A stretch of DNA of 63,942 bases, filler included, from an uncultured Ignavibacteriales bacterium (lineage in GTDB: Bacteria; Zixibacteria; MSB-5A5; GN15; JAAZOE01), in assembly GCA_964611355.1 (NCBI GenBank). It is 7 parts of 6 records of this genome, joined end to end, with 100 filler letters (N's around TTAATTAATTAA, not from the genome) between each part and the next. Parts side by side here need not be neighbours in the genome. Positions count along the whole stretch, not along the records: positions 54,661 to 63,942 come from CAZSYD010000073.1; 6 more parts are not named here. One strand, written 5' to 3'. Below, piece after piece: positions 12,838 to 63,942 of the stretch. A program made the position numbers and the translations under genes. The stretch's first letter is position 1. The number at the start of each line of letters is the position of its first letter. The notes beneath the pieces are model-generated. The model was not told the DNA's origin, did no database searches, and saw only the letters and a list, made by a program, of their open reading frames with translations.

Positions 12838-13252
12838 GTGATGAATAGAATGCGACAGGTATTAATTATATTTCTTCTTGCTTTAATGTCGGTTCCGGCC
12901 GTCGGCCAGGAAGAATCCGGTCAGAAATTTATCAGGATAACGCACTCCGTCGATGGCACTATGGCCGTCGATTCCGCCGGCGATACATGGTTTTACGAGT
13001 CCGATCAGGGTGAATTTGTCAAGGCCGATGAGTATGGAAAAAGGAGATCGGCAGGGTCTTCCTGGCGGGATGAAGATGAAGCGGGCGTCGATGATATTAT
13101 TCTGCCGCCCGAGGAACGCTGCAACGATATTCATTATGGCGATATCACCGATTTCCTGAATGACATTGTCGTTGAAGTTGATGAGCGCGTTGAGGGTTCG
13201 GTCACCGGCGGTCGCGATGTTATTATCAGGGGTCTGGTAACCGGCAATGTCG
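12838..13252 (+). CDS. Secreted protein, possibly polymer-forming/bactofilin-like repeat; truncated
   Basis: Signal peptide, then VEGSV..GRDVIIRGLVTGNV repeats; cut by spacer. Confidence 0.55.
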
Positions 13253-13352
13253 NNNNNNNNNNNNNNNNNNNNNNNNNNNNNNNNNNNNNNNNNNNNTTAA
13301 TTAATTAANNNNNNNNNNNNNNNNNNNNNNNNNNNNNNNNNNNNNNNNNNNN

Positions 13353-13421
13353 TTTAAGGTTCTTTTACGGTAGTTATCAAACTCAGCTGCCAGCCTTAAA
13401 TATTTGCGTTGATAGTTCCAT
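13353..13421 (-). pseudogene. GrpE-like fragment, apparently frameshifted or start-less, at contig edge
   Basis: Reads QRKYLRLAAEFDNYRKRTL (GrpE signature); the ATG at 13421 with SD is one base out of frame. Confidence 0.55.
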
Positions 13422-13612
13422 ATTATGTTCCCCGCTATAAGCTCAAAGGCAGTTAAAATAACATACTTACGGCTTAACGTACCCGGTATCTAATTTTTAA
13501 ATATTAATCATATTAGATTTATTGTCAATAATCAAATAGACGGTCATCGCTTAAAGTAAGCAATTATATATGGTTCATAAGTCACATACAGAAAAAAGGG
13601 GGGCTTGGCTAC

Positions 13613-13897
13613 TTATAGTTTCTTTAACTCAACAACCGTAGCGCCCCATCCGCCGCCTGTGCCGCCCTCGTGACGATATGACAAAACGGCCGGGTGTTTT
13701 TTCAGGATGGAACGTACAATCTCGCGCTGGACGCCGATTCCTTTGCCGTGAATGATGCGAATCCGGTAAATCCCTTTTTCCAGACAGCAATCGATATAAT
13801 CGAGGACAACATCTTTGACTTCGTTCGGTTGAAACTGATGAAGGTCAAGGACGCCGTCGATCGGATATTCTATCGGTTCCCGGTTGTTCTCGTGCAT
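13613..13897 (-). CDS. Stand-alone Smr/MutS2 C-terminal domain protein
   Basis: LDLH, RIIHGKGIGV, GGWGATVVEL. Confidence 0.9.
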   Translation of the reverse strand: MHENNREPIEYPIDGVLDLHQFQPNEVKDVVLDYIDCCLEKGIYRIRIIHGKGIGVQREIVRSILKKHPAVLSYRHEGGTGGGWGATVVELKKL

Positions 13898-13961
13898 ATC
13901 AATAACAATCAAACCGGCAGATAAGTACATATGCCGGTCACCGGATAAATACAATTAGGGA

Positions 13962-14004
13962 GTCGGGTTTCTCTCCGCCTGTGGCGGATCGGAACACCGA
14001 CCTG
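13962..14004. repeat. Intergenic REP-like imperfect palindrome
   Basis: GTCGGGTTTC..TCCGCC TGT GGCGGA..GGAACACCGAC nested hairpin. Confidence 0.5.
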
Positions 14005-14023
14005 CCGGTAGTCGCAGCAAAAT

Positions 14024-14443
14024 TTATTCGGATGCTTCTTCGGATTTCTCCTGCGTTTTGTCCGATTTATCGCCGTCGTCGGACTTTTTTATTTTGCCTT
14101 TGAGATTCATGATCTTTTTGACGACGCCGGGAATCGCCTCCACCAGCGAATCGATTTTGCCCGGTTTGGCAGGAAGAAGCGATATGCCGGTTTTGTCCAT
14201 TATGATGAACGCGGCCGGTTCGACGATGCACCCCCCGCCGCCGCCGGCCCCGTATCCGCCAGAGCTTTTTTCCTTTTCGCCTTCGCCGCCGCCGGCGCCG
14301 AAACCGACCGTTATCTTAACGATCGGCACCACGGTTTTATCGCCAACGGTAACCGCTTCTCCTATTACCGACTCGGCCGAGGCTATATTTTTAAGCTGAC
14401 CGACGATTCCGCTAATGACTTCCATGACATTATTGGTCATCAT
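14024..14443 (-). CDS. GerW/YtfJ family protein
   Basis: VIGEAVTVGDKTVVP..GFGAGGGEG...GGGGG..VEPAAF. Confidence 0.88.
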   Translation of the reverse strand: MMTNNVMEVISGIVGQLKNIASAESVIGEAVTVGDKTVVPIVKITVGFGAGGGEGEKEKSSGGYGAGGGGGCIVEPAAFIIMDKTGISLLPAKPGKIDSLVEAIPGVVKKIMNLKGKIKKSDDGDKSDKTQEKSEEASE

Positions 14444-15081
14444 CCACCTCTTCTTAATATGCTTGACTTTACTATTTTTCTTATCGGCAGGTCGCCAAAC
14501 AGCCGGTAGCCAATACGGATAACCTGCCGGTTTTTTATCGAAAGGGTCAGATGACCCGTCCATTCGCTTTTTTCCGCGCCAAAGTCCGGAACCAGGTTGA
14601 CCGTCCGGCGGGCGCCAGGGAAAATACCATAAAACGCCTGACCAAAACCGTAAAGCATGCCGGCCAGGGCCGGGTCGGCAAAGACCGGCCGGGTTTCAAG
14701 TTTCCCTTCGTCATAATGCAGACGCGAAAGAAAGCGGGCGGCAAAAAGCAACGCCGCTTTACAAATCTTTACGCGACTGGAAAGAGGAAGTTTCTTCCAC
14801 CAGGTTTTAGCCGCTGGTTTGGGCCCGGCTTTTTTCTTTTCGGTTTTTCCCGCAGTAATTTTCCCAGAGCGTGATTTGAAAAAGCATTTAAATCGTCCGC
14901 AAACAATTCCCAATCTGCCTTGTCCGGGATCATACAGTAAGCCGCAACCGATAATAGTCAGCGAAACGGTCGAATCGCCTTCACGGTGGGACGCATAAAG
15001 AACCAGCCGCGTGGTGACAATCAGTATCGCGGCAACCGCGACCGCCAAAGCTACAATAATCAGTACAATCGTCATGACCAC
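14440..15081 (-). CDS. DUF2953-like membrane protein (usual YtfJ partner)
   Basis: N-terminal TM, DPALAGMLYG motif, overlaps the ytfJ-like gene. Confidence 0.7.
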   Translation of the reverse strand: MVMTIVLIIVALAVAVAAILIVTTRLVLYASHREGDSTVSLTIIGCGLLYDPGQGRLGIVCGRFKCFFKSRSGKITAGKTEKKKAGPKPAAKTWWKKLPLSSRVKICKAALLFAARFLSRLHYDEGKLETRPVFADPALAGMLYGFGQAFYGIFPGARRTVNLVPDFGAEKSEWTGHLTLSIKNRQVIRIGYRLFGDLPIRKIVKSSILRRGG

Positions 15082-15568: not shown

Positions 15569-16354
15569 CTATATCACCTGGTCATCCCGGAGCTTCTTAA
15601 ACAGTTTTTCGGCGATTTCCTCCGGCGTCTCGCCCTCGATTATTTCGCCTTTCTGGCGCGGCGGAGGGGACACGGCGGCTACCAGTTTAGACGGAGAATT
15701 CCGGCCAACCGCGTCGGGAGAAATCTCCAGATCATCGGCCGTCCAGGTTATAATCGGCGCTTTCCTGGCCGCCATTTTACCCTTGAGGGAAGGAAGCCGC
15801 GGCTCATTTATTTCCTTGACGACCGAGACCACCGCCGGCAGCGATGTACTTACGACATCATGCCCTTCTTCGGTGGTGCGTTCAAAGACGGCTTCCAACT
15901 CGGAGATATCGGCCGTCCTGCGTACGAAAAGTATCTGCGGCCAATCCAGACGGGCCGCCAGCGCCGCCGGTACCTGTGCCGAATCATCATCGATCGCCTG
16001 TTTGCCGGCCAAAACCAGGTATACGTCGCCAATCTTTTTAATTGCTGCCGCCAGTATCAGGGCTACCGCCTGTGGGTCGCTATCCTCAAAGCCGGGATCG
16101 GCAACCAGGATCGCCTCATCAACGCCGACCGAGAGCGCCTGACGCAGGGCTGACTGGGCCCTTTCACTGCCGACAGTCAGCGCCGTGACTTTGCCACCGA
16201 CCTTTTCCCTTATCCTGAGCCCTTCTTCGATTGCATATTCATCAAAGGGGTTGACGACTCCGGGGCCGGATGGAAGCGTAACCTTACCCACCGCTTCATC
16301 AACGCGGATCAGTTCTATTTCCGGAACCTGCTTTATGATGGCAACTATATTCAT
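15569..16354 (-). CDS. etfB: Electron transfer flavoprotein beta subunit
   Basis: KQVP, NPFDEYAIEE, GKQAIDDD, NEPRLPSL. Confidence 0.95.
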   Translation of the reverse strand: MNIVAIIKQVPEIELIRVDEAVGKVTLPSGPGVVNPFDEYAIEEGLRIREKVGGKVTALTVGSERAQSALRQALSVGVDEAILVADPGFEDSDPQAVALILAAAIKKIGDVYLVLAGKQAIDDDSAQVPAALAARLDWPQILFVRRTADISELEAVFERTTEEGHDVVSTSLPAVVSVVKEINEPRLPSLKGKMAARKAPIITWTADDLEISPDAVGRNSPSKLVAAVSPPPRQKGEIIEGETPEEIAEKLFKKLRDDQVI

Positions 16355-54485: not shown

Positions 54486-54660
54486 CTTGGTTTATATATT
54501 TGATTCTTAGGATTCATCCTTCAGGTATTTGGAGAAGAAATCAACCATTCTCCGGTACATNNNNNNNNNNNNNNNNNNNNNNNNNNNNNNNNNNNNNNNN
54601 NNNNTTAATTAATTAANNNNNNNNNNNNNNNNNNNNNNNNNNNNNNNNNNNNNNNNNNNN

Positions 54661-55189
54661 ATCCAAAGATTTCTTTCATAGCCATCCAATCGAAGGTTTT
54701 ACCGGCGGCTCCGCCAATACCGCCCCAGAAGTCGGACTTTCCTTTCTGTTTTCCAAGAGTCAGGGCTATCAGCCGGTCAAGGTTTCTCATTCGCATCTGC
54801 TCGCCCATTATCGAGCCGTACTGGTACGCTTTGGCATACCCCAGTTCCGATTCGCCGATAGCCGTAGCACCCGCTCGCATAACTGGAGCAACCACATCAG
54901 CCTGATAATATCCCGGCGCCTCTCCGGCTCCGTGAATTCCCCTGCTCGCCAGATCCGCCTCAAAGGCTTCGGTTGAGACTGGTAGCCGCGATAGCAATTC
55001 TGACATCTGGCCCCTGAGTGATCGATCAAAGGCACTCTTGTCCGGCAGAAAACCGCTATAATTGCTTTTTTCATACTCTTTCCGCACAAGCTCCATAAGT
55101 TCGTCCATATCGCCTGAGCCGCCGCCGAAAAGGCCACCAAGCAATGACGTAGCCACGTTTGCCGCGCCATATATCAGTAAAGGGTCCAT
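54661..55189 (-). CDS. Putative internal virion / DNA-ejection protein (truncated)
   Basis: MDPL..Gly/Ala-rich N-terminus, helical body, Gly-rich C-terminal segment; lies after the nozzle gene. Confidence 0.55.
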
Positions 55190-55190
55190 G

Positions 55191-55661
55191 CTATTCTCCT
55201 TCCACCATAACCCGAACCGTGCCGGTATCTGTGCTGTCGCTGGATATGATGATAAACTGCGTCCCGGAAATCGGGATTATCCGGTAACTGCTTTCGTTGT
55301 CTGCATCCAGCGACCACACCCTGCCGAAATAAGTCGTATGGTCAATAAAGCTCAAATCCTGCCGACCGTCAGAGATCGAAGAATTGACTGTGATTGTATC
55401 GTAGCCGCTTCCGCCCAACTTGATTTCCCTTACCGCCCGGTGATACCCCTTTGCATGTTCCGATTGATTTACCGGCCTGCCTGTTCCGATGTCATATACT
55501 GTTTTGACCCGGCCCTCTACCGCTGGGGGGGCTGGTAGCGGCTCAACGAGCCGGGCCGCAGGGATGGAATCATTCTCCCGCTTATCTGCGGAATTCACAA
55601 AGCCAGGCAAGCCGGTAATTACCAAGAACCAAAAGAGAAAGAGATATTTAATCTTTTTCAT
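55191..55661 (-). CDS. Phage hypothetical protein with signal peptide
   Basis: MKKIKYLFLFWFLVITGLPGFVNSA; beta-rich C-terminal part. Confidence 0.65.
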   Translation of the reverse strand: MKKIKYLFLFWFLVITGLPGFVNSADKRENDSIPAARLVEPLPAPPAVEGRVKTVYDIGTGRPVNQSEHAKGYHRAVREIKLGGSGYDTITVNSSISDGRQDLSFIDHTTYFGRVWSLDADNESSYRIIPISGTQFIIISSDSTDTGTVRVMVEGE

Positions 55662-58378
55662 CGAATCCGCCCCTTGTCTGACGGCAAATAGCCGATAGTG
55701 TATCCGGTTATCGTGTAATCCCCGGCCCCCTGATCGGCTATCCTGACCGAAAGGTCTTTTACTATTTCCTTGACCACGAACCGCTGGATTTCTTTTTCGG
55801 TGAAATCAACCGCCCTACTGACGGTCTTGACGGAATCCTGACCTTTGAGATCGAAAAAGGTCAACGAAAGCATATCGCACGATCCCGTTCCCTGCAAATC
55901 GACATAAAATATCTGCTCCCGATTGTTGCCGTTGTCGAAAAAAGACTTGGATTGATAAACCGCAAAAATAGAATCGGTTCCGTCCAGCGAAGTATCAGCA
56001 TAATTCCAGTCGTAAAGAGTATCGTTATCGGCGATGAATACCCATCGGGTTGTCCGGTAATCAGCCGCGTCGCTTTCGTAGTCATAAGGCACGCCGTCGA
56101 TGATCCCGAAGGTGTAGCACTTCCAATGCGGAAAAGGCACGAATGAATAAATGTAGATTTTTGAGTTAATAGAATCGCCCGGGGGGTTTTCACCGGGCCC
56201 GGGTTGAGGTCTCGGGATCGCACCGGAAAACCAGTATTCGTCTCCGACCACTCCACCCCAAGCCGACATAAGATTATCGCCTATTGAGTCCAGAGAGTTT
56301 TCGATTGTCCACGAAATCGGATTGTCCCAGTTATCGCCCGGGAAGGAATAAATCCCGGTATTATGCGCCCAAAAAGCCCGGTTATATCCGCCGGCAAGAC
56401 TCCGGGGGGCGGTCAGTCCTATATCGGCGCTCAATTCTTTGATCTGGTACTGGTAAAAGCTCTGGCCAGCAAACCCGACGAATGAATTTTGCCTGAACGC
56501 CAATAGCCAGTCTCCCATAGAGAGAAGGCCGTTAAACCAGTCGCCCTTTTGGGATGGGATGTTTATGTGCTTGTCCCGATGCCAATTCGTTGGTTCCCCA
56601 AAATCTGAAAAATATAGACAGCTCTTGTTCCATGGATTGCCGATGGCGAATAGCCTTGATTGATGAAGGGCGATGTCAGAAGGGCAAAAGGATATTACGG
56701 AATCGTCATTGCAGTAACCCTCAATGGCACCCAAAACTGTCGAATCTTCGTTAAAGACGTGACGGTAATAATATGAGTATCCACTATACGGCTCGGCTTG
56801 GTGATATATGCAAGTATCGCCCGCCGAATCTGTTTCCAGTTTAATATCCAACATGGAGCCGTACTGCCTGTAAGTAAATTCACCGTGTTTTTCGCCAAGC
56901 CATTTGAAAGGTATCGTGTCGGTATAAGTCGTTGTTTCCGGGTCAAGTTCAGCCACCATGTAAAATCGACCTATTTTGTTTTCGACATAACCGAATCGGA
57001 GGTTTCGCTCACCCAATATCTGATATACGTTGCCGTCATCTTCGCCTCTATAGTTTGGGTCGAGATACATTCTTAATAAATATTTTTTGGTTATAGAGGA
57101 TGAACCAAATCCAACCGGTACTAAAATATTGGATATATTTGCGATGATGATGGTATCTATATCTTCGTCAAAAGGTTCCCACGCCGGATAGTTGCCCCTC
57201 CTTGTGGTGGGCGTTGAGATATAACTATACCTTCCCGCTGAGTCTTTATAAACGACGGAATAGGATACAAAATAACCGCCGGTGTCTCTATAATCGGAAA
57301 CGGAACAAATGTCTGTCCCGAAGCCGTTTTCGGTTAAATCTATACCATAAGGATAATGAGCGTATGGATAATAGGCGGCGATAAGATAACTCGTATCCCC
57401 AGCACTATCAATTAGAACCCAAGGTCGTTCTTCCCGGTCAAAATCAACCATTAAACCACCGGGGGCGCATGAATCGTTGTCTATACTACTCCCCGTTGAG
57501 TTTGGGAAAAACACTGGTGTCAGGGTATCGGTTATATTCGCCGCCGAATCCATTGAAACGCTGTCCACAAAGCTCGTAGCGTAGATGCTTTTAATGAGAT
57601 GCCAAGCACCATCCTCGTTGTCTTGGCGATATATTTCGATGCTATCCCCGGCTGACGGCACTATCATTCCCTCAATCCAGACTTTGCCGTTATTTACATA
57701 GACGGGGAACGAAGGGACGGACGCGTCGGGACAGTTGGCGTTTGTGAATATATAACGATATTGCACCGTCCCGTTAATAGAACCAATGCCGTCGAGCGGA
57801 GAGACCCTCGGTTGGCCGGGCCCATACGGTCTGGCTGGCATTGATTTATTCCCATCAAAGACCACCATATCGCTACTCGTGCTGGCTATGATTAGATTTT
57901 CATTCACAATCGCCGATCTTTCGTTGTACGGAAGGCTTAGATGGCGGCGGCCAAGATAATAATTCCATCCGATAAAGGTCGTGCAGGTGCCGCCGCTCTC
58001 ATCATCACAAAGAAATAAAGAAGCCAAATTGAGTGCAGGTTCCGCGAGTCCGTAATCACCGCCCCGCGTTGTATCGTTTCTGACAACCAGAAAGCCCTTG
58101 CCTATGCTGCGGCCATAATAGCCGAAAACGGCTTGGCCTATTTGTTCGGAGAGGCTGTCAATGTAGTATTGCCGAAAACCGTTTCTGCGTTTTAACGCCC
58201 CATATCCGTCAATATCAAAATTATCAAGGACAATCGCCTGGTTGTCTTTCATCAGGGAATTGCTGATCGAGTTCACCAGCCCGCCGGAGAAATCATTTAC
58301 AGGATATTCTTCAATCTCCTGCGATGACAGAGGCGCCGTCAGTAATAACGTCAGGATTATGAAAAGACAGCGAATCAT
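55658..58378 (-). CDS. Phage tail nozzle / tail tubular protein B-like (P22 gp10/T7 gp12 class) with N-terminal signal peptide
   Basis: After MIRCLFIILTLLLTAPLSS comes DFSGGL...DNQAIVLDNFDID..GALKRRNG; later HQSRLF...LYFSDFGEPTNW beta-propeller patterns. Confidence 0.7.
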   Translation of the reverse strand: MIRCLFIILTLLLTAPLSSQEIEEYPVNDFSGGLVNSISNSLMKDNQAIVLDNFDIDGYGALKRRNGFRQYYIDSLSEQIGQAVFGYYGRSIGKGFLVVRNDTTRGGDYGLAEPALNLASLFLCDDESGGTCTTFIGWNYYLGRRHLSLPYNERSAIVNENLIIASTSSDMVVFDGNKSMPARPYGPGQPRVSPLDGIGSINGTVQYRYIFTNANCPDASVPSFPVYVNNGKVWIEGMIVPSAGDSIEIYRQDNEDGAWHLIKSIYATSFVDSVSMDSAANITDTLTPVFFPNSTGSSIDNDSCAPGGLMVDFDREERPWVLIDSAGDTSYLIAAYYPYAHYPYGIDLTENGFGTDICSVSDYRDTGGYFVSYSVVYKDSAGRYSYISTPTTRRGNYPAWEPFDEDIDTIIIANISNILVPVGFGSSSITKKYLLRMYLDPNYRGEDDGNVYQILGERNLRFGYVENKIGRFYMVAELDPETTTYTDTIPFKWLGEKHGEFTYRQYGSMLDIKLETDSAGDTCIYHQAEPYSGYSYYYRHVFNEDSTVLGAIEGYCNDDSVISFCPSDIALHQSRLFAIGNPWNKSCLYFSDFGEPTNWHRDKHINIPSQKGDWFNGLLSMGDWLLAFRQNSFVGFAGQSFYQYQIKELSADIGLTAPRSLAGGYNRAFWAHNTGIYSFPGDNWDNPISWTIENSLDSIGDNLMSAWGGVVGDEYWFSGAIPRPQPGPGENPPGDSINSKIYIYSFVPFPHWKCYTFGIIDGVPYDYESDAADYRTTRWVFIADNDTLYDWNYADTSLDGTDSIFAVYQSKSFFDNGNNREQIFYVDLQGTGSCDMLSLTFFDLKGQDSVKTVSRAVDFTEKEIQRFVVKEIVKDLSVRIADQGAGDYTITGYTIGYLPSDKGRIR

Positions 58379-59019
58379 TTACCGCTCCCAGCCGAAACCT
58401 TTATTCCCATGTCCTGCCGGACAATAGCATTAAGCAACTGAAAGACGGCGTGGTTCTTTTTCGCCTGCTCATAGTAACTGACGGCTTCTTCGATGATAAA
58501 AACGTGCAGATCGTCGGGGACATAGCAACTATCCGTCCGAGCATCCATATTCGGAGCCCGGGCAAGGTAATGAATCCTTACGGTCTGATCGGTGTAGAAA
58601 TAGCTGCCCTTCAAATAAAGCTCGGCTTGATCGGCATTTTCCCACCAGATAAAATACTGGTATTTATCCACATCCGTAATAAAGCCCGGATTGTTGACGG
58701 CCGCATGCCATTGCTCTCCATCATAGGCAACAACCATACTACATCTCTTGAAATCTGTCGGCAGGGAGTATTTCATCGAATCCGGGGAATAGGCAATATC
58801 GCAACGCTGTGGCAAAAATCCGCCGAACGGCACTACCTTATCCATTGCCATATCGAGAAACCGCATCGCCGCCGTATCGGAAATAATCGAGCTGCCGCTG
58901 TCCGGTTCCCCTATTCTCTGCCGGAAACCCCAGAGAAGATCGTCCAACGTAGCCGCTTCGACAAAATGAGCCGCGAAAGTCAGGATTATCAACCAGAGAA
59001 GGATACGCTTCAGCATCAA
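58375..59019 (-). CDS. Phage head-tail adaptor-like protein 2 with N-terminal signal peptide
   Basis: MMLKRILLWLIILTFAAHFVEA, then TLDDL..FRQRIGEP...YSLPTDF...IHYLARAP...VPDDLH. Confidence 0.7.
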   Translation of the reverse strand: MMLKRILLWLIILTFAAHFVEAATLDDLLWGFRQRIGEPDSGSSIISDTAAMRFLDMAMDKVVPFGGFLPQRCDIAYSPDSMKYSLPTDFKRCSMVVAYDGEQWHAAVNNPGFITDVDKYQYFIWWENADQAELYLKGSYFYTDQTVRIHYLARAPNMDARTDSCYVPDDLHVFIIEEAVSYYEQAKKNHAVFQLLNAIVRQDMGIKVSAGSGK

Positions 59020-59690
59020 TGCCCCCTTCCGATTTTGTGGCTCAATCGGTTCCGCTTTGAGGTTCTTTGATCCGGGACCATCCGGATATCGGTAATAACC
59101 CGGCCAATATCCTCCTGATAATGACCGAGTTTTCTCAGGTAGATATGAGCATCAACTTCGGCTGTCGTAAAGAATTCCGGCAACGAAGCGCGAACCCCGC
59201 GCATCAATAGAGACCATTCTTCAATCGCGTCTATGTCGTTTTCCGTCGGCTCGCGGTAATACTCGAACTTGTAAGTGCATGAGGTTGAGGCCTCATCTGC
59301 CAGAACCAGATAGTTTCCCCTGCCGTCGGAACCGTCATGATTGAACTCAATGTAGCACATATTGGCGGCTGCGGGCGCATTGTTTTCAATCGTATGCAGG
59401 ACTTCGGTTTTACCGACAATGTAGATCAGGCGGACGAAGTTGCCGCTGCTATCATATTCGGCGCACGATGTCCGGGCAGTAAAGAAATCGCTGTTGAGCT
59501 TATATTGAAGATCCGTCGTATTGATGGAGATTTCTTGAGTCCGGGAAAGCGTCCGAAACCGGCCGCCGCTCTGCTGGAGCATCTCCAGTGCAACCTCGCC
59601 GACCTTTCGCTCAATCTTTGCCTGGATTTCAGGGCCGGTCTTGCCCGAATCCGAAATCAGCCTATCGACCATAAATGCTCTTGATGCCAT
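59016..59690 (-). CDS. Phage head-tail adaptor-like protein 1 (no signal peptide)
   Basis: Helical N-terminus, QYKLNSDF and YKFEYYREP adaptor-type motifs. Confidence 0.6.
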   Translation of the reverse strand: MASRAFMVDRLISDSGKTGPEIQAKIERKVGEVALEMLQQSGGRFRTLSRTQEISINTTDLQYKLNSDFFTARTSCAEYDSSGNFVRLIYIVGKTEVLHTIENNAPAAANMCYIEFNHDGSDGRGNYLVLADEASTSCTYKFEYYREPTENDIDAIEEWSLLMRGVRASLPEFFTTAEVDAHIYLRKLGHYQEDIGRVITDIRMVPDQRTSKRNRLSHKIGRGH

Positions 59691-59693
59691 TTT

Positions 59694-60224
59694 TTAACCC
59701 CCGTAGGCAGCCATCCTGGGTGTTTGGCGCAGCCTTTTCTTCGCAACCGGATTGAGCTTTTGCAACGGTTCAACGGCCTCTTTTTTCTCTTCCAGCCGCG
59801 TCGCCATTTTGCCGATGCGCTCTTTAACGTCCTTCATGGTGAGAGAGGCCATATCCGCCGATTTGCCTACGCTCACGCAGGTTTTGACTTCCTGTACCTT
59901 GACCATATCGAGTTCACGCCAGAAACCGGTCTCATCTCTTTCGTCGATATTGAAGCCGTGAGAACTTGAGCCGAAGGCGGCATGTTGCAAAAGCAGTTCG
60001 AGGATATTGGAGTTGGTAACTCTCAAGCTACCGGCTTTGAATTTAATCCTGAGCCCTGTTCCGGACGTTGATACATAAGCCTTGCGTACCTGGTCATATA
60101 CATCCTCAAGCGGCTTCAGAATAATTTTGAGGTGTGGAGCATCCTCGGTTGATACGAAAGTGGCGGCGACTTTAAGATCGCTGCCTTTGAATTTCTTCGG
60201 CCCTTTTGTTCTTTCAAACGCCAT
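59694..60224 (-). CDS. Phage hypothetical protein
   Basis: AGGAGA SD; lies within the structural operon. Confidence 0.6.
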   Translation of the reverse strand: MAFERTKGPKKFKGSDLKVAATFVSTEDAPHLKIILKPLEDVYDQVRKAYVSTSGTGLRIKFKAGSLRVTNSNILELLLQHAAFGSSSHGFNIDERDETGFWRELDMVKVQEVKTCVSVGKSADMASLTMKDVKERIGKMATRLEEKKEAVEPLQKLNPVAKKRLRQTPRMAAYGG

Positions 60225-60248
60225 CGCATTCTCTCCTTTTTTAATCAA

Positions 60249-60270
60249 GGGGGCGGGGTTCGCCCGCCCC
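60249..60270 (-). terminator. GC hairpin after the capsid genes (probable partial terminator)
   Basis: GGGGCGGG-CGAAC-CCCGCCCC on the minus strand. Confidence 0.5.
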
Positions 60271-60281
60271 GTTATTAAGGT

Positions 60282-61091
60282 TTAGTAGTTACACCACTGT
60301 TTTCTCCGGTTGACCGAAGGCCCGAAAACCAACGACCGCGCGGCTATGCTGATGCTCGGTGAGGTGATTGCTCCGGAAGCATCGGTGGCCTGGAAGACCA
60401 GCCTCTTGCCCTTTGAAGCCATAATCGGCTCACCGTCCATATCGAAAGTCGTCGCTGTGGCTGTAACCAACGGCATTGTCCTGACCAGAACCGAAGTCCC
60501 GGCAAAGTCATCGCACTCATAGACCTTTATTCCGGCCGTTGCGCCGCCAAAGCTAACATTCGCCTCAACTTGCAGAATCTCATGGAGAACCTGCATATCG
60601 CCGTTGTGAATGTTAAGCGACGGGCCGTTCAGCGTAACCCCGACAGGGAATATCTCCGCCGTTTCCAGCGAAGTGTCATCGAGGATCAATAATCCCGCGT
60701 CTCCCGTGCAATCGTTGTCAGTTCCCTGACCAGTTGCATAGACGGCATTACCCGCCGAGATTTCAATGTCGTTATCCGGACGGTAATCGACCGGCCAAGC
60801 CTCCCAATCGTCGGCAAGATTAATCATGTGATAGAGGTCATAAACCGTCGAAAGGTCGGAAATGTTGATTACGCCGGAAGTTCCGGGATTATCACCGGTT
60901 GTTACGGCCGCCGTTCCGGCCGTAGCACCTTGTTCAAAAGTCAAGTCGCCCGTTGTGGCCCCGACAGAAACAATGCCTGCCGCATAAGGCCCGATACATC
61001 TGATCCCAATTACGACAGACGTATCGACGGCCACCCGCTCGTAGGTACTCCTGATCCAATCCGCAGGAGATACATTTATAATTCCCATCAT
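60282..61091 (-). CDS. Phage structural protein, possibly capsid decoration
   Basis: Directly after the MCP gene, AGGAGG SD, A/T/G/D-rich. Confidence 0.5.
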   Translation of the reverse strand: MMGIINVSPADWIRSTYERVAVDTSVVIGIRCIGPYAAGIVSVGATTGDLTFEQGATAGTAAVTTGDNPGTSGVINISDLSTVYDLYHMINLADDWEAWPVDYRPDNDIEISAGNAVYATGQGTDNDCTGDAGLLILDDTSLETAEIFPVGVTLNGPSLNIHNGDMQVLHEILQVEANVSFGGATAGIKVYECDDFAGTSVLVRTMPLVTATATTFDMDGEPIMASKGKRLVFQATDASGAITSPSISIAARSLVFGPSVNRRKQWCNY

Positions 61092-61098
61092 TACCTCC

Positions 61099-62286
61099 TT
61101 AGAATTCTAATCCTTCGATTATTGACCAGGTTTCCTCCTCGAAATACTCATACCCGAATTGGCCGTAGATTTCACCCTCGTCGGAGTGAACCTCGTCACG
61201 GCTGATCGGATTGTAAGCGATATCGAGGTCTTTCTTTTCCTTGAGCGGTCGGTACATGAATTTCCCCTTCGGAACGAGGAAAATCATTCCCATCAGATAC
61301 GGGTCCTGACTGAGCTTATCGCCCTCAATCAGGTCGTAAATGTGGCCGTTCAGGTTGATGCGCCGAATATCCAGACCCAGTTCTTTGGCGTCTTGGTCCA
61401 TGACAACCTTGTCGTCCGTCCATTGGTTTACCAGGCTGATAAAGTAGGACGAACAAACAATAGCGCCCTGTCCCTTGTAGAAAATCCGCCATTCCAGAAG
61501 AAGGTCAAAGAAGTCCATTCGGCTCATTGTCCCGGAGACATTCGTTACGTTTGTCGTAACAAAATCGTAGATGCCGCTAAAGGTATGGTAGTTCTGGGTG
61601 TAACTGGAGGAATCGGTTTTCTGACCCATGAAAAACAGGCCAGACTCCATTTGGTTTTTAATCCGCATCCACGATTTGTCGAGGTCTTTCTCAAACGGCG
61701 TCATTCCGGAGTATGTCCGCTCGGCAACCTCGGTATCGGTGGCCGAAACGGGATAGCTCACGATGCCGGTCGTAAATGACTTATAGACATCTACGCCGGA
61801 CTGTGGCTTGCCGGTCGTGAAGCCTTCGACCATCTGTGGGGTCAGAAGCAATAGGTGGTCGCCGGTTTTGAGATAATCGGTGGTAGCTCCGCGACCATGG
61901 CAACGGTCAACCGCTGCCGTTGTGTCCGCACTGGCAGGGTCGGCTGTCAGCCGAATAAGTTCCTTCGTCCTGGTGCAAAACAGAACCTGACCCTCAGCAC
62001 AGCGTTCGTAAACGTTGTCGATGGTCAGACCGGTTGCGCCCTGAGAGACCTCATCGTCACCGGTGTACTCAACCCAGTCGGCGAAGGGGGTGTCTTCGGT
62101 GTGGCCGAAGGTGTGGTTGAAGGTTGGTTCGGACGGCAATCCGTTTGCCATGAGCCACGACAGAAGCTGGTTCTGATTCGGGTTGTTCATCCATACCCGA
62201 TCCCCGATGCACAGGGGTTTATCCTGCGCGATAGGATCGTCGGTATCCCGAATCGTCCGTAAAAATGTTGCAGCATTTGGAAGCAA
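61099..62286 (-). CDS. Major capsid protein (SU10/DUF5309-like HK97 fold)
   Basis: 395 aa after the scaffold gene; N-terminal NP...LL, H...ED, ME.GLFF.G...TFSGIYDFV.TN, YRPL, C-terminal GE..G.E pattern. Confidence 0.75.
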   Translation of the reverse strand: MLPNAATFLRTIRDTDDPIAQDKPLCIGDRVWMNNPNQNQLLSWLMANGLPSEPTFNHTFGHTEDTPFADWVEYTGDDEVSQGATGLTIDNVYERCAEGQVLFCTRTKELIRLTADPASADTTAAVDRCHGRGATTDYLKTGDHLLLLTPQMVEGFTTGKPQSGVDVYKSFTTGIVSYPVSATDTEVAERTYSGMTPFEKDLDKSWMRIKNQMESGLFFMGQKTDSSSYTQNYHTFSGIYDFVTTNVTNVSGTMSRMDFFDLLLEWRIFYKGQGAIVCSSYFISLVNQWTDDKVVMDQDAKELGLDIRRINLNGHIYDLIEGDKLSQDPYLMGMIFLVPKGKFMYRPLKEKKDLDIAYNPISRDEVHSDEGEIYGQFGYEYFEEETWSIIEGLEF

Positions 62287-62289
62287 GTG

Positions 62290-63171
62290 TTATCCTTTTT
62301 TGGGTCCTTTCAGGCGCCTCATTGTGTGATCAAAGTCTTCCTTGTTGTGCATATCAAGGCCGCCTGTTTTTTTCGCATTCGCATTGTCTTCGGCGCCGCC
62401 GCTTCCGCCCTTCAAATCGCCTGTGTTCTTTCTGTTAAGTTCCTCGATGTACTCTTCCCGACCAACTTTCTTGGCCGCGTCAAGAGCCGCCGGCAGATTC
62501 GCGCCTTTGGCTGCCAGATGCAGAACCTCGGCCATTTCCATTCGCCCGCTGACCGTCGCCAGTTGAAGCGAGTTACGATCCTGAGACAGTTGGCCCCAGT
62601 CATCGTATTTCCGAGCATACTCCGCTTCCTGCATGGCGTCGATCTTGGAGGCAAACATCGAGGAAAACCGAGCCGTCAATTCGTCGCCGAATTGTTTGAA
62701 TTTGGCATCAAGGTTGGATTCAGAAAGAGCTCCGTCGTCGTCCAGAAGAGCGACTTTCTTCCCTTCGGGAAAGTCGATCTGAACGCCAAATTCTTTGGCA
62801 AGTTTGGCAATGCCTTGTTTGGCGTCTCCGTCGAAAATGCTTTTCAGGGACTTGAAAGATTCAATATCAGACCCCAATCGCCCGACTGAGGTTTTCAACT
62901 TCTCGTTCTCTTCCTTGAGAGAGAGAATCTGAGCATCCCTGTCATCTCCTTTTTTATCAGACGAAGCATCAGGTTTCTTTTTGTTGTCGGCGTCTCCGGC
63001 TTTGCCGGCATCCTGATTACCCGCGTCGGCAGCACCGGCAGCGCCCTTATTGGCGTCGCCCGCGTCCCCAGCGTTGGCCTTGTTTGCCGCATCCTGACCG
63101 GCAGTCCCAGCGTCTCCGCCGGCACCCCCGTCAGAACCTTCATCTAAATAGCGCCGTAAGTGAAGAATCAT
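62290..63171 (-). CDS. Capsid scaffolding protein
   Basis: Low-complexity D/A/G/K N-terminus, coiled coil, lies just before the MCP gene. Confidence 0.7.
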   Translation of the reverse strand: MILHLRRYLDEGSDGGAGGDAGTAGQDAANKANAGDAGDANKGAAGAADAGNQDAGKAGDADNKKKPDASSDKKGDDRDAQILSLKEENEKLKTSVGRLGSDIESFKSLKSIFDGDAKQGIAKLAKEFGVQIDFPEGKKVALLDDDGALSESNLDAKFKQFGDELTARFSSMFASKIDAMQEAEYARKYDDWGQLSQDRNSLQLATVSGRMEMAEVLHLAAKGANLPAALDAAKKVGREEYIEELNRKNTGDLKGGSGGAEDNANAKKTGGLDMHNKEDFDHTMRRLKGPKKG

Positions 63172-63173
63172 AA

Positions 63174-63428
63174 CTACTCCTGTAAAGTGTTTTGTATGTA
63201 AGTTTTAAGCCTGTCGATAAGCTGCGAAAAATGCCGCCTCTTCAGGCTCAGTTCTTTTAATTTGCCTATTTCGCTTTCTTTCAATTCGACGTTTGCCCCC
63301 AATGAGCGGATCATCTCTTCTTTGATTCCGTCAACCTGCTCGTCGAGAAAACCCATCAACAGCTTGAACTCAGACGAAGTTGTAATTGCCTGCATCCGAG
63401 CGGCTTCTGGTGTCTGTTTTCCCCTCAT
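63174..63428 (-). CDS. Small phage protein between portal and scaffold
   Basis: 84-aa helical ORF in a position typical of podoviruses. Confidence 0.6.
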   Translation of the reverse strand: MRGKQTPEAARMQAITTSSEFKLLMGFLDEQVDGIKEEMIRSLGANVELKESEIGKLKELSLKRRHFSQLIDRLKTYIQNTLQE

Positions 63429-63942
63429 GGCGTTACCCCTACGCTGGTAGATCTCTGTCCCTGAGAAATCGCTGCCTGCCCGGTGGATTCCGTCAAGGCA
63501 TTGCTTCTTTGACCCGCCCCGGCCGCCTGAACCCCCATCTGCATCCCGGCCGATTTGTGCTCTTCCGCGTGTTGAGTCATTCGCCTCTTCATGGATTCCG
63601 GCCAGAGTTGATAATCCGGCGTCATCATGTAGGCCGAATGTACCCTGAAGTGATTTTCGTGATCGTTGGCGGGCGACACCCGAACGGTATGCCCCATAGC
63701 CATAATCTGATTTTCAATTTCAGGCGGTATATTCTCGGACTTTTCTGCGGGGTCAACCACGTATTCGTTAAACTCGCGCGGGTCGAGCTTCTTCCACATG
63801 CCCTTAAATAACTTTGTTAGATCAAAATACTGCGGAAACTGTAAAGACCTATCGAGGCCGGTCATATACTGTTGAATACGAATAGCATCATCCTGTAACC
63901 GGGTTGATCCCCGCGCCATGAATTTGCAACTGCCCGTCAGCC
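63425..63942 (-). CDS. Portal protein C-terminal part (starts beyond the window)
   Basis: Frame open to the window end; NDHENHFRVH...HAEEH and a Q/A/G-rich tail typical of P22-like portals. Confidence 0.65.
   Translation of the reverse strand, partial: LTGSCKFMARGSTRLQDDAIRIQQYMTGLDRSLQFPQYFDLTKLFKGMWKKLDPREFNEYVVDPAEKSENIPPEIENQIMAMGHTVRVSPANDHENHFRVHSAYMMTPDYQLWPESMKRRMTQHAEEHKSAGMQMGVQAAGAGQRSNALTESTGQAAISQGQRSTSVGVTP

Follow-up and report, generated by a model that had tools for sequence, protein, structure and literature searches.

Predicted Sec Signal Peptides and O-Glycosylation Sequons on Tail Proteins of a Distantly SU10-Like Podovirus Lineage

Textbook tailed phages assemble both their heads and their tails in the cytoplasm, and gp11 and gp12 of T7 as well as gp4 and gp10 of P22 are cytoplasmic, signal-less proteins. 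In the Escherichia phage SU10 (Kuravirus), the closest structural relative of the system described here, a C-terminal loop of the adaptor embraces the portal, and the helix bundle of the adaptor binds the nozzle platform, according to sections of the structural report (PMC9509320). The stretch of DNA analyzed here (the window; 63,942 nucleotides of GenBank assembly GCA_964611355.1, a metagenome-assembled genome [MAG] of an uncultured Ignavibacteriales bacterium) ends in a phage contig at positions 54661 to 63942. Three consecutive minus-strand genes of this contig, encoding an SU10-type tail adaptor (adaptor 2), a nozzle, and a protein of 156 amino acids (aa), begin with predicted signal peptides of the general secretory (Sec) pathway. 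Judging from the sequences, we consider it probable, though well short of certain, that these tail proteins are exported, processed, and glycosylated in the periplasm.

Adaptor 2 (58375..59019, minus strand) has 214 aa when read from a TTG codon and 213 aa from the ATG at 59016, the start used in its database gene call (P0005; 213 aa, 100% identical). The nozzle of 906 aa (55658..58378, minus strand) and the 156-aa protein (55191..55661, minus strand) follow downstream. All three starts are preceded by Shine-Dalgarno sequences and coupled to the stop codon of the gene before (TGATG, ATGA, and ATGA overlaps): that of adaptor 2 (GGAAGGGGG..TTGATG) overlaps the upstream TGA, that of the nozzle reads GGGAG..ATGA, and that of the 156-aa protein reads AAGGGG..ATGA. 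Each product opens with one to three Lys or Arg residues and about 14 to 17 uncharged hydrophobic residues, and small residues come next. The putative signal peptide of adaptor 2, MMLKRILLWLIILTFAAHFVEA (58954..59019, minus strand), carries K4 and R5 and a 15-residue uncharged stretch, and its cleavage at VEA↓A would expose ATLDD. The one of the nozzle, MIRCLFIILTLLLTAPLSS (58322..58378, minus strand), precedes QEIEEY, and its n-h-c pattern is kept in relatives; the one of the 156-aa protein, MKKIKYLFLFWFLVITGLPGFVNS (55590..55661, minus strand), precedes ADK, with a putative cleavage site after S24 or A25.

Signal-like N termini were called with a rule that takes the best 10-residue Kyte-Doolittle window and demands no charge inside it and a Lys or Arg before it, and the cleavage site was placed, by a rule of our own, before the first polar residue. 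As expected for substrates of Sec and signal peptidase I (SPI), all three window proteins combine a positive n-region with an h-region shorter than a membrane span and, at the cleavage site so placed, signal-peptidase-like residues at −3 and −1. Exactly these 3 pass among the 13 phage open reading frames (ORFs) of the contig (C73) and its overlapping neighbor (C85). The portal, the TerL-like and TerS-like proteins, the 84-aa protein, the scaffold-like protein, the major capsid protein (MCP), the 269-aa and 184-aa proteins, adaptor 1, and a cut ORF of at least 176 aa all fail the rule. The original prediction, which had seen n-h-c signal peptides on three coupled genes and none on the scaffold, the MCP, the 269-aa and 176-aa proteins, or adaptor 1, is thus upheld on both counts. 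Three positives in a row are unusual but not decisive, because the same loose rule passes 363 of the 2,073 ORFs of the MAG (17.5%). We take as decisive the conservation across homologs of the feature, as predicted from their sequences, and not of the sequence itself.

Two other kinds of signal were considered and rejected for the three window proteins. The motif of the twin-arginine translocation (Tat) pathway is S/T-R-R-x-F-L-K, and none of the three contains RR; a few relatives begin with MRRLL, without the rest of the motif. Neither does any of them have a Cys at the end of the h-region, as a lipoprotein signal (signal peptidase II) would. Among the nozzle relatives, P0015, P0029, and P0034 hold a Cys in a lipobox-like place just before Q (..LSC, ..AGC / ..SC, ..GC), and some members of the nozzle family might be lipoproteins instead of SPI substrates.

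The identity of the two larger proteins was established by profiles and folds. Adaptor 2 matches the Pfam family PF24175 (SU10_adaptor) at 1.3e-5 and 26.1 bits (cut-off, 27), residues 24 to 187 falling on profile positions 2 to 163, and its ortholog in the related locus L006 reaches 44 bits, aligned from residue 23. A precomputed table also lists PF24175 for P0005, P0008, P0009, P0156, P0157, and P0159. The AlphaFold2 (AF2) model of adaptor 2, with a mean predicted local distance difference test (pLDDT) score of 81.5, matches adaptor and ring proteins of KHP30, crAss001 (chains 7qoj_D/E/F), cyanophage A4, SU10 (gp11, 7z4b_DU, among the best), GP4, Pa223, and N4, and this fold match supports its membership in SU10_adaptor. 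The AF2 model of the nozzle, built from a 46-sequence alignment (pLDDT 78, predicted template modeling score 0.79), found only podovirus nozzle or tail-hub proteins among its 32 best PDB matches in Foldseek. SU10 gp17 came first (7z4b_DW, 5e-20; template modeling score of ~0.4 over the full length), and further matches were to A4, the crAss001 muzzle (7qol_P, 7qok_A), and Pa223; the nozzle/tail-hub fold, with its platform, beta-propeller, and nozzle domain, is likewise shared with T7 gp12 (9jyz_P, 8e-16; 7boy_s) and P22 gp10 (8eap_D). Sequence-only matches of the nozzle were weak (phrog_511 at 6e-5; PDB profile 9nwi_Y at E = 0.011), neither adaptor 2 nor adaptor 1 matched anything in sequence-profile searches of the PDB, and no match to the nozzle or the MCP was found by tblastn in 50,697 deposited phage records (E <= 1e-3). 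The relation to SU10 is visible only at the profile and fold level.

In both proteins, the familiar part of the family starts right behind the predicted cleavage site. Residue 24 of adaptor 2 lies on position 2 of PF24175. In the nozzle, the DFSGG motif stands ~10 residues after the first polar residue, near its distance from Met1 in signal-less homologs, and the median distance from the first polar residue to the GG of DFSGG in the 46 aligned nozzles is 14 residues. Distant nozzle homologs (~490 or ~1,000 aa) begin with Met and mostly 8 to 14 residues before DFSGG, with no hydrophobic segment. Cleavage would therefore restore the canonical N terminus of adaptor 2 and of the nozzle, as far as sequence comparison can tell.

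A nozzle profile search over 1.84 billion representatives returned 2,993 homologs, 71 of them at E <= 1e-30 and 62 at E <= 1e-79. Among the 62 close nozzles, a strict form of the rule is passed by 43, and 5 more are hydrophobic but miss a single criterion. In 1 the hydrophobic segment lies within an upstream extension, 6 start partway through the segment, and 7 are fragments that lack the N-terminal region. Hence, 55 relatives have their N terminus on record, 49 with the whole hydrophobic segment and 6 starting within one, and not one of the 62 shows a signal-less canonical N terminus. The 46-sequence alignment consists of the window nozzle and 45 of the 62 relatives; the other 17, which were omitted, comprise the 7 fragments, the 6 with truncated N termini, the extended one, and 3 that were C-terminally short, with the N terminus whole.

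The uncharged stretch of the 46 nozzles has a median length of 15 residues (range, 12 to 22), with only 3 sequences at 19 or longer. A net positive n-region is found in 43 of them. Position −1 holds A, G, or S in 36 (background, 0.315; binomial p 9e-11), position −3 holds mostly A, V, L, I, or S, and Q comes first among the polar residues in 27 (background, 0.106; p 3e-15). By these sequence features, the geometry is that of a cleavable signal and not of an anchor. The 12 residues before DFSGG are also more acidic in homologs with a signal than in those without (mean charge, −1.31 versus −0.23; Mann-Whitney U test, p 7e-4).

The same feature accompanies the other two proteins. A signal is present in 15 of 15 adaptor 2 orthologs (12 aligned, plus those of G003, L095, and L098), 11 of the 12 aligned ones having A at −1, and in 5 of 5 syntenic orthologs of the 156-aa protein. 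Adaptor 2 and the nozzle both carry it in seven phages, namely, the window phage, L004, L005, L006, G003 (the same record as L007), L095, and L098, and in L101 neither the nozzle nor the adaptor in front of it has a signal, so the trait appears to be coordinated. Hydrophobicity is kept although sequence identity falls to 25 to 30%. A metagenome scan with a 5-sequence alignment added only four new loci. The canonical N termini behind the cleavage sites and the adaptor-like and nozzle-like labels, the latter resting on Foldseek matches of the AF2 models, are points on which the initial description proved right. The distant homologs P0092, P0097, P0113, and P0122 show a different layout, with a signal peptide, a long low-complexity linker rich in Q, E, and P, and then the nozzle domain; the export trait, as predicted from sequence, may be present in further tail lineages with another N-terminal design.

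The general O-glycosylation system of Bacteroidota acts on the sequon D-(S/T)-(A/I/L/V/M/T) and modifies only noncytoplasmic proteins; E cannot replace D in the sequon of B. fragilis, a motif engineered into an exported protein becomes glycosylated, and the oligosaccharyltransferase is not known, as stated in portions of a review (PMC12871550). We counted this sequon in proteins of four phages (the window phage, L004, L006, and G003), with expected counts obtained from shuffles. The 13 signal-bearing tail proteins contain 141 sequons versus 36.6 expected (3.85-fold), the 21 signal-less virion proteins of the same phages contain 19 versus 35 expected (ratio, 0.54), and five control motifs gave ratios of 0.58 to 0.99 in the signal-bearing set. 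In the window phage, there are 18 sequons in the nozzle (3.6 expected), 2 in adaptor 2 (0.7 expected), and 3 in the 156-aa protein (0.7 expected); its ten signal-less ORFs have 3 in all, and adaptor 1 has none. The two alignment columns with a sequon in the window adaptor 2 have one in 9 and 10 of the 12 aligned sequences. Nozzle relatives carry 6 to 24 sequons (median, 17), seven columns holding one in at least half of the sequences, and the median is 5 in adaptor 2 versus 1 in its signal-less paralog, adaptor 1.

The association with the N terminus extends to the wider nozzle family. Among nozzle homologs of 400 aa or more that begin with M, the median density is 1.88 sequons per 100 aa with a hydrophobic N terminus (n = 62) versus 0.43 without (n = 69; p 3e-13), and the high outliers among the 69 are close-family calls with truncated starts. 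Within G003, only ORFs with a hydrophobic N terminus show the excess, among them a membrane-anchored ORF of 371 aa. The sequon would thus be a second, independent mark of a noncytoplasmic location, the location itself being read from the signal peptides only. The depletion in phage head and internal proteins (0.54) has no counterpart in the cytoplasmic proteins of the MAG (1.17), and it may reflect avoidance of glycosylation once the compartments mix at lysis.

The MAG shows related signatures. Sequons occur at 2.0 times expectation in the 283 signal-like proteins of the MAG (controls, 0.74 to 1.11) and at 1.17 times in its 1,412 cytoplasmic proteins (controls, 0.79 to 1.21). At 2.06 per 100 aa, the density in the signal-bearing tail proteins is about three times that in the signal-like MAG proteins (0.71). 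The first polar residue is Q in 21.5% of the signal-like MAG proteins versus 8.2% in the background. The Q-rule of Bacteroidetes, under which Sec/SPI substrates have Gln at +1, is described in parts of two studies (PMC5837995, PMC10653852), and the window nozzle fits it (..PLSS↓QEIEEY). Either the Q-rule and the sequon reach further into the Fibrobacterota-Chlorobiota-Bacteroidota (FCB) group, or the taxonomic guess for the MAG is off; a Bacteroidota-like O-glycosylation signature in a Zixibacteria-like genome is hinted at.

Cysteines of the nozzle point in the same direction. Three column pairs (nozzle residues 124/132 and alignment columns 296/392 and 507/556) have both, one only, or neither of their cysteines in 26/2/18, 12/4/30, and 26/3/17 of the 46 relatives, while cross-pairs are unlinked, which suggests up to three disulfides in these sequences. 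Only this paired-column pattern is informative, since the number of Cys residues is even in just 23 of the 46 nozzles.

Four relatives from IMG/VR, examined with 10-kb flanks, have the same gene order as the window phage. Among these, G003 is a complete genome of 52,110 bases, bounded by direct terminal repeats, that carries TerL, portal, MCP, integrase, and CI-like repressor genes; the lineage looks temperate because of the last two. The signal-bearing adaptor 2 and nozzle are the only adaptor 2 and nozzle genes of G003. Signal-less in these relatives are the head genes, adaptor 1, and the proteins that follow the small protein (~200 aa, ~400 aa, and a giant one of 1,546 to 2,109 aa), which by position are probably internal or ejection proteins. 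Genes beyond the giant protein often have a signal, among them a beta-helix tailspike in L006 (PF13229 at 1e-14, phrog_2234 at 1.6e-14) and a 1,672-aa protein at the fiber position in G003. Among the ORFs of G003 (63 + 9 scanned), Pfam recognized no Sec, Dsb, or signal peptidase gene. Several of its small ORFs (L090:7639-7995, 13016-13558, 13642-14757, and 16026-16316; L091:3823-4137) have a hydrophobic N terminus or a transmembrane segment, and most of them are sequon-rich (371 aa, 10 versus 2.3 expected; 96 aa, 4 versus 0.4; 104 aa, 4 versus 0.4); these family-less ORFs could be missing lysis or assembly factors.

From these data, the following scheme can be proposed for what would be a temperate-type, distantly SU10-like podovirus. 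The portal, scaffold, MCP, two small proteins, adaptor 1, and the internal or ejection proteins would be made and assembled in the cytoplasm, where adaptor 1 would close the packaged head. The distal tail (adaptor 2, the nozzle, the 156-aa protein, and, in relatives, the fiber or tailspike) would be made as Sec preproteins that cross the inner membrane unfolded and are cut by SPI, leaving the mature nozzle with an N-terminal Gln like Q-rule substrates. Folding would take place in the periplasm, with probable disulfides and with O-glycosylation by the general D-(S/T)-(A/I/L/V/M/T) system of the host, the use of which requires export. The exported tail would not meet DNA-filled, adaptor-1-capped heads until lysis opens a breach in the inner membrane. 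By analogy with crAss001, which stacks adaptor-fold rings, the portal is plausibly followed by adaptor 1, adaptor 2, and the nozzle, in that order.

The original prediction had proposed that the tail is exported and then joined to cytoplasmic heads. Its first half is supported by the design of the signals, the −1 and −3 residues, the nozzle Q, the acidic early mature region, the cysteine pairs, and the sequon; the joining is something we only infer, we rate it below export, and its time and place are a guess. A still broader proposition, that FCB-group temperate SU10-like podoviruses share, as a clade, a two-compartment virion with a periplasmic tail bearing pyroglutamate, disulfides, and host-type O-glycans, is tentative, and we would put its chances slightly short of even.

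A number of points weigh against the proposed scheme. All signal peptide calls come from home-made rules applied to sequence alone, without a trained predictor; the 46-sequence set was chosen partly by eye, on N termini; and the p-values given above overstate the case because the homologs are kin. Cysteine content is only marginally higher with a signal than without (0.995% versus 0.71%, p 0.05), and sequon Ser and Thr residues lie in coil in 12 of 18 cases versus 52% coil overall in the nozzle model, a weak difference. The Q-rule is followed by the nozzle only; cleavage would leave A, E, D, or K at the front of adaptor 2 and the 156-aa protein. The 96%-complete MAG gave no match to the plant-type glutaminyl cyclase family PF05096, the animal type (M28 fold) not having been searched for. 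The MAG looks Zixibacteria-like, as judged from one protein, the glycogen synthase encoded in the window, whose best hits (55 to 66% identity) are mostly in Zixiibacteriota MAGs, and the link between phage and host is binning only. Pfam recognized no holin or endolysin among the ORFs scanned in the complete relative G003. To our knowledge, the joining of a tail from the periplasm to a head made in the cytoplasm has no example among tailed phages. Sections of the respective reports (PMC5837995, PMC12871550) assign the Q-rule and the sequon mainly to Bacteroidota.

Part of the evidence would fit other explanations as well. The hydrophobic N termini could be uncleaved or late-cleaved anchors that tether the tail to the periplasmic face of the inner membrane, which would act as a two-dimensional assembly platform until the tail is freed at lysis or by a later cut. 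A charged n-region and an acidic early mature region give the same N-in/C-out topology, the sequon enrichment is explained equally well, and the 371-aa ORF in the tail region of G003 has a true internal anchor together with its 10 sequons (2.3 expected). However, for a stable anchor the uncharged stretch is short (median, 15 residues), the small −1 residue and the Q after the segment point to SPI, and the mature part begins at the canonical N terminus of both families; we regard anchoring as rather unlikely. Retention of the tail in the cytoplasm would keep textbook assembly: the Sec pathway would be blocked late or outrun by oligomerization, and the helices would stay in the virion for membrane insertion or triggering at the next infection. 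Podovirus tails must indeed cross an envelope, and residues 2 to 18 are helical in the AF2 models of the nozzle and adaptor 2. Yet this leaves the −1/−3 and Q preferences unexplained, as well as the paired cysteine columns and a 3.9-fold sequon excess that is found only in these proteins, with depletion in other virion parts. In addition, eighteen exposed hydrophobic helices per tail would need burying, and the solved relatives are without such a segment. We consider a cytoplasmic tail improbable.

Exported adaptor- and nozzle-like proteins need not be virion parts; they could form a domesticated or moonlighting envelope module for secretion, DNA transfer, superinfection exclusion, or decoy. 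Prophage genes of P. gingivalis with Q-rule signals have been read as envelope modifiers, according to part of one report (PMC10367356). The genes in question are, however, the only adaptor 2 and nozzle genes of a complete 52-kb relative that has terminal repeats, TerL, portal, MCP, and integrase; they lie, translationally coupled, at the canonical place between head and internal-protein genes; and they encode full-length nozzle and adaptor folds. The domesticated secretion or DNA-transfer machine that had been suggested for the window is disfavored also because its contig runs on into a portal and a terminase-like ORF, and we judge an envelope module marginally less probable even than a cytoplasmic tail. 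Wrong start calls, with the hydrophobic stretches untranslated, are the least credible explanation, and we give them hardly any weight. Past the segments, the only in-frame starts are a TTG at codon 25 of adaptor 2 and a GTG at codon 35 of the nozzle, and six database relatives are called from inside the segment. The annotated starts are nevertheless the ones that are SD-preceded and coupled, hydrophobicity persists down to 25 to 30% identity, and the alternative starts would remove conserved mature residues, invariant in the domain, from both proteins. A miscalled start, which the original prediction had allowed for as a way in which it could fail, is thus very unlikely.

The remaining genes place the three in a phage module. 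Within the window, contigs of the MAG are strung together by N..TTAATTAATTAA..N linkers, TTAATTAATTAA being a six-frame stop spacer. One linker lies at 54562-54660 and another N run near 51.7 kb; since genes on opposite sides of a linker have no physical connection here, the host genes to the left of 54562 are uninformative about the genomic context of the phage. The phage piece is the whole of contig C73 (54661-63942, 9,282 bases), whose end (63888-63942) shares a 55-nucleotide terminal overlap with the start of C85, as expected from an assembly graph. Together the two contigs give ~14.1 kb of phage, and no further contig end overlaps either free end by 21 to 127 bases. On C85 lie the remainder of the portal gene, a terminase-like ORF of 544 aa with an N run in it, and a 218-aa ORF. 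All 13 ORFs are on the minus strand, in the order 218-aa ORF, TerL-like, portal, 84-aa protein, scaffold-like protein (293 aa), MCP (395 aa), 269-aa protein, 184-aa protein, adaptor 1 (224 aa), adaptor 2 (214 aa), nozzle (906 aa), 156-aa protein, and the cut ORF of at least 176 aa.

The C-terminal part of the portal occupies 63425..63942, and the gene runs on into C85 through the 55-nucleotide overlap; the 535-aa portal ORF of C85 matches phrog_332 at 4e-6, and its G003 ortholog matches PF23899 (SU10_portal) at 29.8 bits (cut-off, 30). TerL is confirmed in two relatives by phrog_2 (4e-22 and 3e-20). The scaffold-like 293-aa protein and the 84-aa protein (62290..63428), named from position and composition only, have no signal, and neither does the MCP (61099..62286; PF17236, SU10_MCP, 2.6e-13). 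The 184-aa and 269-aa proteins between the MCP and adaptor 1 (59694..61091) have no signal and no family and are syntenic in L004 to L007. Adaptor 1 (59016..59690), 224 aa without a hydrophobic N terminus, has no PF24175 match of its own in the Pfam scan. Its G003 ortholog reaches 27.8 bits (cut-off, 27) from residue 6, the ESM Atlas places the window adaptor 1 at 0.95 with viral clusters carrying PF24175, and hhalign aligns it with adaptor 2 (probability, 61%; E = 8e-5). By these profile comparisons it is a second, divergent adaptor paralog, and it likely forms the ring on the portal, the ring order being deduced.

The 156-aa protein stands at the position of T7 gp13 and is predicted to consist of a signal peptide, a linker that varies from ~20 to ~100 aa across its five syntenic orthologs, and a conserved, beta-rich C-terminal domain of ~105 aa. 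It gave no usable lead in the ESM Atlas (best, 0.86; a Por_Secre_tail cluster at 0.79 is at chance level). No Pfam or PHROG match was found for the 156-aa, 184-aa, and 269-aa proteins or for the 1,672-aa, 371-aa, and 180-aa ORFs of G003. The ORF of at least 176 aa, cut by the contig end (54662..55189, minus strand), has a Gly-rich hydrophobic N terminus (MDPLLIYGAANVATSLLGGLFGGGSG..) without a positive n-region and is syntenic with ORFs of 152 to 218 aa in L004 to L006. Judged by its position in the gene order, it is probably an internal or ejection protein, and it may be a membrane-active ejection protein. The proteins at this position in L004 and L005 have N termini like it, and neither passed the signal rule. 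Further nozzle searches brought little: the nozzle profile gave 113 pattern matches in genome contigs, none confirmed, and over 285 genomes of the phylum of the MAG the nozzle model gave two distant hits besides the MAG, at loci that did not cover the N termini, and no host assignment from prophages.

SU10 shares much of this architecture. Its Pfam families match the lineage (SU10_MCP, SU10_adaptor, and SU10_portal, the last at 29.8 of 30 bits and thus under the cut-off), and its gene order is similar, with TerL, portal, small protein, scaffold, and MCP followed farther on by the adaptor and then by the nozzle and ejection proteins. The order of T7 genes 11 to 16 also resembles the adaptor, nozzle, small protein, and internal proteins found here. 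Unlike SU10, this lineage has two tandem adaptor paralogs and, in one complete relative, an integrase. The adaptor, nozzle, and fiber proteins of SU10 have neither signal nor sequon excess and served as a negative control; gp11 and gp17 lack a hydrophobic N terminus and contain 0 and 2 sequons (0.7 and 4.0 expected). The host of crAss001 (Bacteroides) belongs to the phylum that has the O-glycosylation system. Nevertheless, among 26 head, tail, and lysis proteins of crAss001, which served as a second negative control, only the lysis proteins gp27 and gp28 have a signal-like N terminus, and the sequons number 42 versus 36.5 expected in all; phages of such hosts therefore do not carry the trait in general.

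Phage proteins known to use the Sec pathway include endolysins with signal peptides or signal-anchor-release sequences, spanins, and the coat proteins of filamentous phages, which assemble by extrusion and have no cytoplasmic head. Among tailed phages, virion glycosylation exists in mycobacteriophages, in which phage-encoded cytoplasmic glycosyltransferases carry it out, whereas a periplasmic system of the host would be used here. The nearest precedent comes from prophages of P. gingivalis, in which some genes of no assigned function obey the Q-rule, as reported in part of one study (PMC10367356). None of these Sec-using endolysins, spanins, coat proteins, and Q-rule ORFs is the adaptor, nozzle, or fiber of a tailed phage. 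In the open-access literature, we found no report of signal peptides on such proteins, of host-type O-glycosylation of a phage tail, or of glycosylated tails in Bacteroidota.

If our reading is correct, the lineage would provide the first case in Caudoviricetes of an assembly pathway that is topologically split, and also the first of a phage tail that a periplasmic system of the host glycosylates. Adaptors, nozzles, and fibers that are Sec substrates would break the rule of cytoplasmic assembly and raise the question of where and when head and tail join, and the sequons offer a reason for the detour, namely, access to a modification available only in the periplasm. A host-like glycan coat might serve stability, adhesion, or evasion of defenses, and densely glycosylated tails, as predicted, would matter for receptor binding, for the stability of virions in sediments, for their recognition by host defenses, and for phage engineering aimed at Bacteroidota-type hosts. 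Signal peptides and sequon density also provide two cheap markers that sort virion proteins into "outside" and "inside" sets. Like the window nozzle, envelope proteins of Bacteroidota combine a signal peptide, Q at +1, and dense sequons, as described in portions of the literature on them (PMC5837995, PMC10653852, PMC12871550); unlike in those envelope proteins, the substrates here are core virion parts of a tailed phage. The podovirus tail is thus a known machine, and what is new is its apparent routing through Sec and its predicted glycosylation.

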